A DNA stretch of 64,000 nt. It comes from Lama glama. Lineage: Eukaryota. Under the pieces are notes generated by a model. That model worked only from the letters and a program-made list of their open reading frames with translations, searched no databases and was not told the DNA's origin. Shown piece after piece: positions 54,703-62,262 of this stretch. Each line of letters starts with the position of its first letter. Within the stretch, counting starts at the first letter, position 1. The translations under genes and the position numbers were made by a program. The stretch spans positions 96,844,001 to 96,908,000 of the forward strand of contig CM052852.1 in the NCBI GenBank assembly GCA_028534125.1, read 5' to 3'.

Positions 54703-62262
<7,560 letters not shown>

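Follow-up and report, generated by a model that had tools for sequence, protein, structure and literature searches.

The ECMX locus

The 64,000-nucleotide stretch of llama DNA analyzed here, referred to as the window, carries on its forward strand a nine-exon gene for an ECM2-like leucine-rich repeat (LRR) protein that is nearest to ECMX models. ECMX is described as a class A small leucine-rich proteoglycan and an ECM2 paralogue located upstream of BGN (PMC2637281), and the ECMX-BGN pair is described in both PMC2637281 and PMC11917481. A biglycan (BGN) exon is present on the same strand approximately 18 kb beyond the window (L003 8412-8561; E 3.6e-34 to PDB 2ft3), and TREX2 lies upstream of the gene within the window. 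Protein similarity and position upstream of BGN identify the gene as the ECMX orthologue, as a first-pass annotation of the sequence had named it, and synteny with BGN suggests that it is X-linked.

The first coding exon (54703-54873, +) has a signal-peptide-like start, is proline-rich and ends in phase 0 after 171 nt. It is followed by a symmetric exon 2 of 426 nt (56125-56550, +) and by exon 3 (56947-57231, +), which encodes the N-terminal cysteine cluster. LRRs are encoded by exons 4 (57465-57580, +), 5 (57988-58120, +), 6 (58325-58482, +), 7 (58969-59108, +) and 8 (61223-61549, +), with Pfam LRR_8 matches in exons 6 and 8, and exon 9 (62070-62262, +) supplies the C-terminal cap and normal stop. 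All eight introns are of the GT..AG type, and if exon 1 is taken to end in phase 1, exons 2-9 encode 591 aa up to the normal stop. The protein encoded by exon 2 shares 94% identity with camel models labelled ECM2-like, and ungapped alignments of the LRR core were obtained with horse, bat, ruminant and other models. In a tree of this core the window protein groups with the camel models and, among camelids, with alpaca apart from camels, which marks the animal as a South American camelid. When one ECMX exon was used as query against the llama's own genome, the 144 candidates scored comprised one exact match, a next best match at 59% identity that is likely ECM2, and no second intact ECMX copy.

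Other features of the region were recorded. A stretch at 45164-45405 (+) matches an upstream extension (MFRA..) of camel and fox ECMX models and lies beside the start of a minus-strand gene, presumably HAUS7; its frame changes near 45311-45323 and then meets a stop, and it probably represents a non-coding first exon driven by a bidirectional promoter. The TREX2 open reading frame (19684-20394, -) is intact at 236 aa, with at most 89% identity to any of 46 matches, and a C2H2 zinc-finger open reading frame of 408 aa (5668-6894, +) is taken by its position to be probably the last exon of ZFP92.

Frame break and C-run alleles

From the ATG at 54703 to the base before the GTGAGT donor (54873) exon 1 measures 171 nt and includes a C10 homopolymer (54858-54867), while exons 2-9 are open in, and need, phase 1; the phase clash proposed in the first-pass annotation is thus confirmed. 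In the assembled frame exon 2 is read in another open frame and translation ends at a TGA within exon 3 (57178-57180), giving a 276-aa product without any LRR. From this stop 51 nt remain to the end of exon 3 and 167 nt to that of exon 4. Premature stops so placed usually mark a transcript for nonsense-mediated decay (NMD), so the shifted transcript would be an NMD target. The frame break is the only inactivating lesion found in the gene, as exons 2-9 contain neither stop nor frameshift and all splice dinucleotides are canonical.

To place this allele in context, the exon 1-exon 2 junction was compared with that of other mammals. In dromedary and wild camel the models have ..PPGPPD|GQV at this point, equal to 55 codons plus 1 nt, and these protein models imply a camel exon 1 of 166 nt. 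On that basis the window allele carries a net +5 nt, located at the C10 run and the TC that follows it (54858-54869), rather than being one base out as first annotated. A run of C8 or C11 would indeed bring exon 1 into phase, but the junction GPPPLD|G expected from such a repair is not the orthologous one, which in camel proteins is GPPD|G. A direct exon 1-exon 2 join of the form [D/N/E/K]-G-Q is present in 16 of 26 non-Lamini models; the Bactrian camel model has the same join and gains 16 in-frame residues by using an acceptor further upstream, while the other 9 of the 26 lack exon 1 or differ at the junction. A horse-type protein (P0030) on a 1187-nt Logan contig runs continuously through exons 1-4 with a GQ-type junction, indicating that the contig is likely derived from mRNA and suggesting real splicing at this junction. 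Intact orthologue models are found in camel, horse, bat, ruminant, hippo, canid and elephant, all being gene models, with camel exon 1 deduced from protein. Models from pig, warthog, musk deer, sheep and rabbit and two whale models (P0017, P0019, P0039, P0040, P0044, P0048, P0005) lack the signal-peptide exon; either these models are incomplete or the 5' end of ECMX may be damaged in other mammals as well.

Twenty-four sequencing runs were listed, of which four were compared over 54500-56700: DNA runs X4, X10 and X13, from 16 good candidates, and RNA run X17. The comparison was of contigs, which drop rare variants, and the reading of exons 3-9 rests on the assembly. Word shares in other runs were near 1.00, a measure too coarse to show C-run length. 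X4, with a contig over 54549-56700, and X10, which covers the whole stretch, are the two compared runs of the window's own kind, and neither showed any difference or gap relative to the window, including C10. The two come from separate samples and separate studies, so the assembly can have been built from no more than one of them, and their agreement makes an assembly error unlikely. The inactivating mutation is present in the organism and not just in the assembly. A 33-nt partial match over the C run in X10 (record 2) proved to be another locus with a loose end and not a second allele.

Run X13, from a close relative, yielded a different broken allele. It lacks 54867-54870, leaving C9-ATG and an exon 1 of 167 nt that ends in phase 2, a net +1 nt relative to camels, and direct splicing to exon 2 leads to a stop after codon 70. 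The two alleles differ by a 4-nt block, CTCG, and not by simple run length, although a change of one C would put either in frame. The three DNA runs and the alpaca RefSeq model are all out of frame, and no in-frame ECMX allele was found among them. X13 also lacks 18 nt just upstream of the ATG (54668-54685) and has a G>A at 54694.

Joining the X13 allele to a 56-nt stretch of intron 1 (55754-55809, +) reproduces the junction ..GPPPWNLPV..VLRGQV of the alpaca RefSeq protein P0006, indicating that the alpaca reference carries the +1 allele. The 56-nt exon, which ends in a GC donor, is thus a filler with which the gene predictor bridged the alpaca frameshift. The same filler would not mend the window allele, as 171+56 nt gives phase 2. 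The two alleles may reflect two separate events, or an old +1 event that was modified later. P0006 also omits most of exon 2 after ..RFPAP, a part that is open in X13, and this gap may be a flaw of an older assembly or model.

Possible splicing leaks and selection on the LRR core

As had been noted earlier, a second GT at 54878 gives an exon 1 of 175 nt ending in phase 1, and the frame is then open to the normal stop with a predicted product of 650 aa. The U1 duplex calculated for this +4 tandem donor (GTAGGT, 54878-54883, +), which has an A at -1, is about half as stable as that of the main donor (GTGAGT, 54874-54879, +), at -5.3 vs -10.8 kcal/mol. Three true ECMX donors score -5.3 to -6.9 kcal/mol; the +4 site is not impossible as a donor, but would compete with a far stronger overlapping one. 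The second GT is itself the +5/+6 GT of the GTGAGT consensus, which occurs by chance in about half of donors, although with its own G+5 and T+6 the site is better than a typical unused +4 GT. X13 carries an identical GTAGGT where the +4 shift leaves the frame broken, since this shift restores the frame of the 171-nt allele only, and the site has therefore not arisen to compensate the window allele. Cryptic CAG acceptors (56094-56124, +), with exon starts at 56103 or 56094 (22 or 31 nt upstream of exon 2), are in frame with the main donor in the window allele and represent a second candidate leak.

From the RNA run X17 came three short contigs that lie in intron 1 and exon 2, show no joints, carry camel-type residues and leave exon 1 uncovered. 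Use of the in-frame -48 acceptor of the Bactrian camel model would leave the frame broken. Slippage of the ribosome or polymerase on a C run offers another conceivable route, and C-only slippery sites are usually weak.

Published data allow the expected scale of such leakage to be judged. About 47% of constitutive exons have a GT four bases downstream of the donor, and among used +4 sites in human data the downstream minor form accounted for 144 ESTs vs 7,000 and 15 cDNAs vs 531 (PMC2423196). Shifts of +/-4 nt are the commonest donor shifts, with minor sites used at least tenfold less (PMC8055015). The leak from the window allele could be somewhat higher than these values, since NMD depresses the published minor shares and would here act on the major form.

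Selection on the LRR core was analyzed over 392 alignment columns polarised by outgroups. Nineteen of these vary within camelids, nine of the changes mapping to the Lamini stem, three to the window only, two to alpaca only and four to the camel stem, with one unpolarised. Over all core columns 12 changes fell on the window lineage vs 4 on the camel lineage (p=0.077), and only 4 of 11 outgroups gave p<0.05 for this asymmetry; in 328 near-invariant columns there were 10 vs 2 changes (p=0.039). Of 379 core sites, 5 distinguish the window protein from alpaca and none distinguishes dromedary from Bactrian camel. Set against 6 non-coding differences in 1586 sites between the window and X13, the five core changes reject an omega of 0.2 (p=0.002) and fit an omega of 1 (p=0.31). 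In this test the amino-acid changes come from the alpaca RefSeq protein and the non-coding ones from a different individual, and short divergences inflate omega. The ratio of core to N-terminal divergence was 0.70, compared with 0.10-0.22 in deep pairs and 0.52-0.62 in three other shallow pairs. At strictly invariant columns the window and alpaca each had 6 changes of 258 and dromedary had 4, with 19 (of 277) in dog, 9 in armadillo and 6 in rabbit. The N-terminal part is likewise richer in Lamini changes, and a generally faster lineage rate may account for those in the core; no camelid TREX2 that could serve as a rate control was present among the 46 matches or cluster members listed. These modest signs suggest relaxed selection on the Lamini LRR core.

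Individual substitutions of the window include a P>S in exon 4 at a site invariant elsewhere. Window-only R>W and E>K changes are present in the first codons of exon 2 (56133, 56145), whereas R and E are retained in X13, X17, alpaca and camels. Exon 3 starts with AG at 56947 in the window and apparently in alpaca (CAG|AG), giving G>E at a position that is G in other mammals. Canid ECMX cores (P0037, P0038, P0041) show many changes at otherwise invariant sites, the dog count above among them, and may be under relaxed or positive selection.

ECMX as a probable camelid pseudogene

The first-pass annotation had offered three readings, namely a homopolymer error, a slippage-prone on/off allele and a hypomorph rescued by the tandem donor. 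A lineage-wide loss, outside all three, fits the data best: ECMX is probably a young unitary pseudogene of the South American camelids (the llama-alpaca lineage), with a small splicing leak at most. Under this interpretation indels at the poly-C tract (+5 nt in the window and +1 nt in the alpaca-type allele, relative to 166 nt in camels) would have disrupted the frame, in two events or in a single one in the common ancestor that was followed by a further change. Most transcripts would be spliced at the strong GTGAGT donor and exon 2 read in the wrong frame, stopping in exon 3 before any LRR, with nonsense-mediated decay as the expected outcome. Splicing at the +4 donor, or at the acceptor that lies 22 nt before exon 2, might account for a few per cent of transcripts and yield the 650-aa protein or a similar full-length product; such an in-frame leak would be an accident of the window allele and not a selected rescue.

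A functional hypomorph, in which the +4 donor or the upstream acceptor provides enough full-length ECMX for selection to preserve the open frame of exons 2-9, is the strongest competitor and is nevertheless rather unlikely. The open +4 product, the G+5 and T+6 of GTAGGT, the lack of a second lesion and the expected bias of NMD against the major form are all consistent with it, as are the prevalence of +/-4 shifts (PMC8055015) and of /GYGA/GT, the commonest motif among 118 such donors with 36 cases (PMC2423196). The weak U1 pairing with A at -1 and the scarcity of downstream minor forms in human transcripts argue in the other direction. Moreover, the +4 shift fails in the allele of the relative, which would need a poor +8 site (GTTGCA, -4.0) or other acceptors, and the excess of changes at conserved LRR sites lies on the shared Lamini stem. 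A further reading is conceivable in which the 4-nt change, arising on top of an older +1 frameshift, made the +4 GT frame-keeping, so that a dead gene was partly switched back on in one species. We regard this as unlikely; if true, ECMX dose would be set by the choice of U1 register together with NMD, and the alpaca-type allele would stay null.

Frequent slippage of the poly-C tract, with intact and broken ECMX coexisting in herds, would explain why close relatives carry two alleles at one C run, each a single C out of frame. The uniformly out-of-frame alleles in the DNA runs and the alpaca model, and a difference consisting of the CTCG block, speak against such a segregating on/off allele, which we consider quite improbable, although the sample is small and contigs drop rare variants. 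It is more doubtful still that ECMX functions through another transcript form with a small intron 1 exon or another start. An extra phase 0-to-1 exon between 54873 and 56125, which would have reconciled the frames, has one stop-free candidate (55342-55375) under loose filters; the alpaca model includes a 56-nt exon, and camel models vary in their use of exons 2 and 3. However, no other mammalian model has an exon at the candidate position, the alpaca filler has a GC donor and leaves the window allele unmended, and the frame stays wrong whether exon 2 is skipped or an inner acceptor of exon 3 is used. A start at the earliest in-frame Met downstream of exon 1 would fall past the first cysteine of the N-terminal cluster and provide no signal peptide. 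Least credible of all is a homopolymer error of the assembly. Long C or G runs are error-prone in sequencing, and the window has only 4 runs of at least 8 C or G; yet the contigs of both X4 and X10 gave C10 without a gap, not C11 or C8, the 5-nt difference from camels includes TC, and the frame is also broken in the relative and in the alpaca model.

This probable loss represents a new instance of lineage-specific gene loss by frameshift, a kind of event that is in itself ordinary. The literature yielded no report of ECMX loss in camelids, the supplements of PMC12127551 and PMC11917481 aside, and PMC6293640 is silent on it in the passages concerned. No function of ECMX is described in the cited literature, and the contrast between camels, whose gene models are intact, and llama and alpaca, which probably lack a working gene, would offer a natural comparison between close relatives for a skeletal matrix protein about which little is known. 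The case also shows how a predictor can hide a true frameshift behind a filler exon.

Comparison with known systems places the llama gene among several related cases. It shares with the ECMX of PMC2637281 its gene family, LRR core and downstream BGN, and differs in that the llama frame is broken after codon 54; the relevant passages of that paper mention neither camelids nor the present lesion. Human ECMX is listed as 'ECMXP, pseudogene' and as transcribed in a chordoma RNA table (PMC9529962), which makes it the same gene in an independent lineage. Because of its status in humans ECMX is likely to be missed by gene-loss screens that take human as reference. The losses screened in Old World camels (PMC12127551) are similar in affecting single-copy genes, in frameshifts found across relatives and in being masked by frame-patching predictors, whereas the proposed ECMX loss lies on the South American side; the main text of that study, as distinct from its supplements, names neither ECMX nor ECM2. 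The donor itself resembles the GYNNGY (+4) tandem donors described previously (PMC2423196, PMC8055015), having the GTGA|GT motif with a minor downstream site. In the usual +4 form the shift breaks the frame and feeds NMD, whereas in the window allele the putative +4 splice is the only frame-keeping donor choice, making this gene a natural substrate in which +4 donor leakage would escape NMD.
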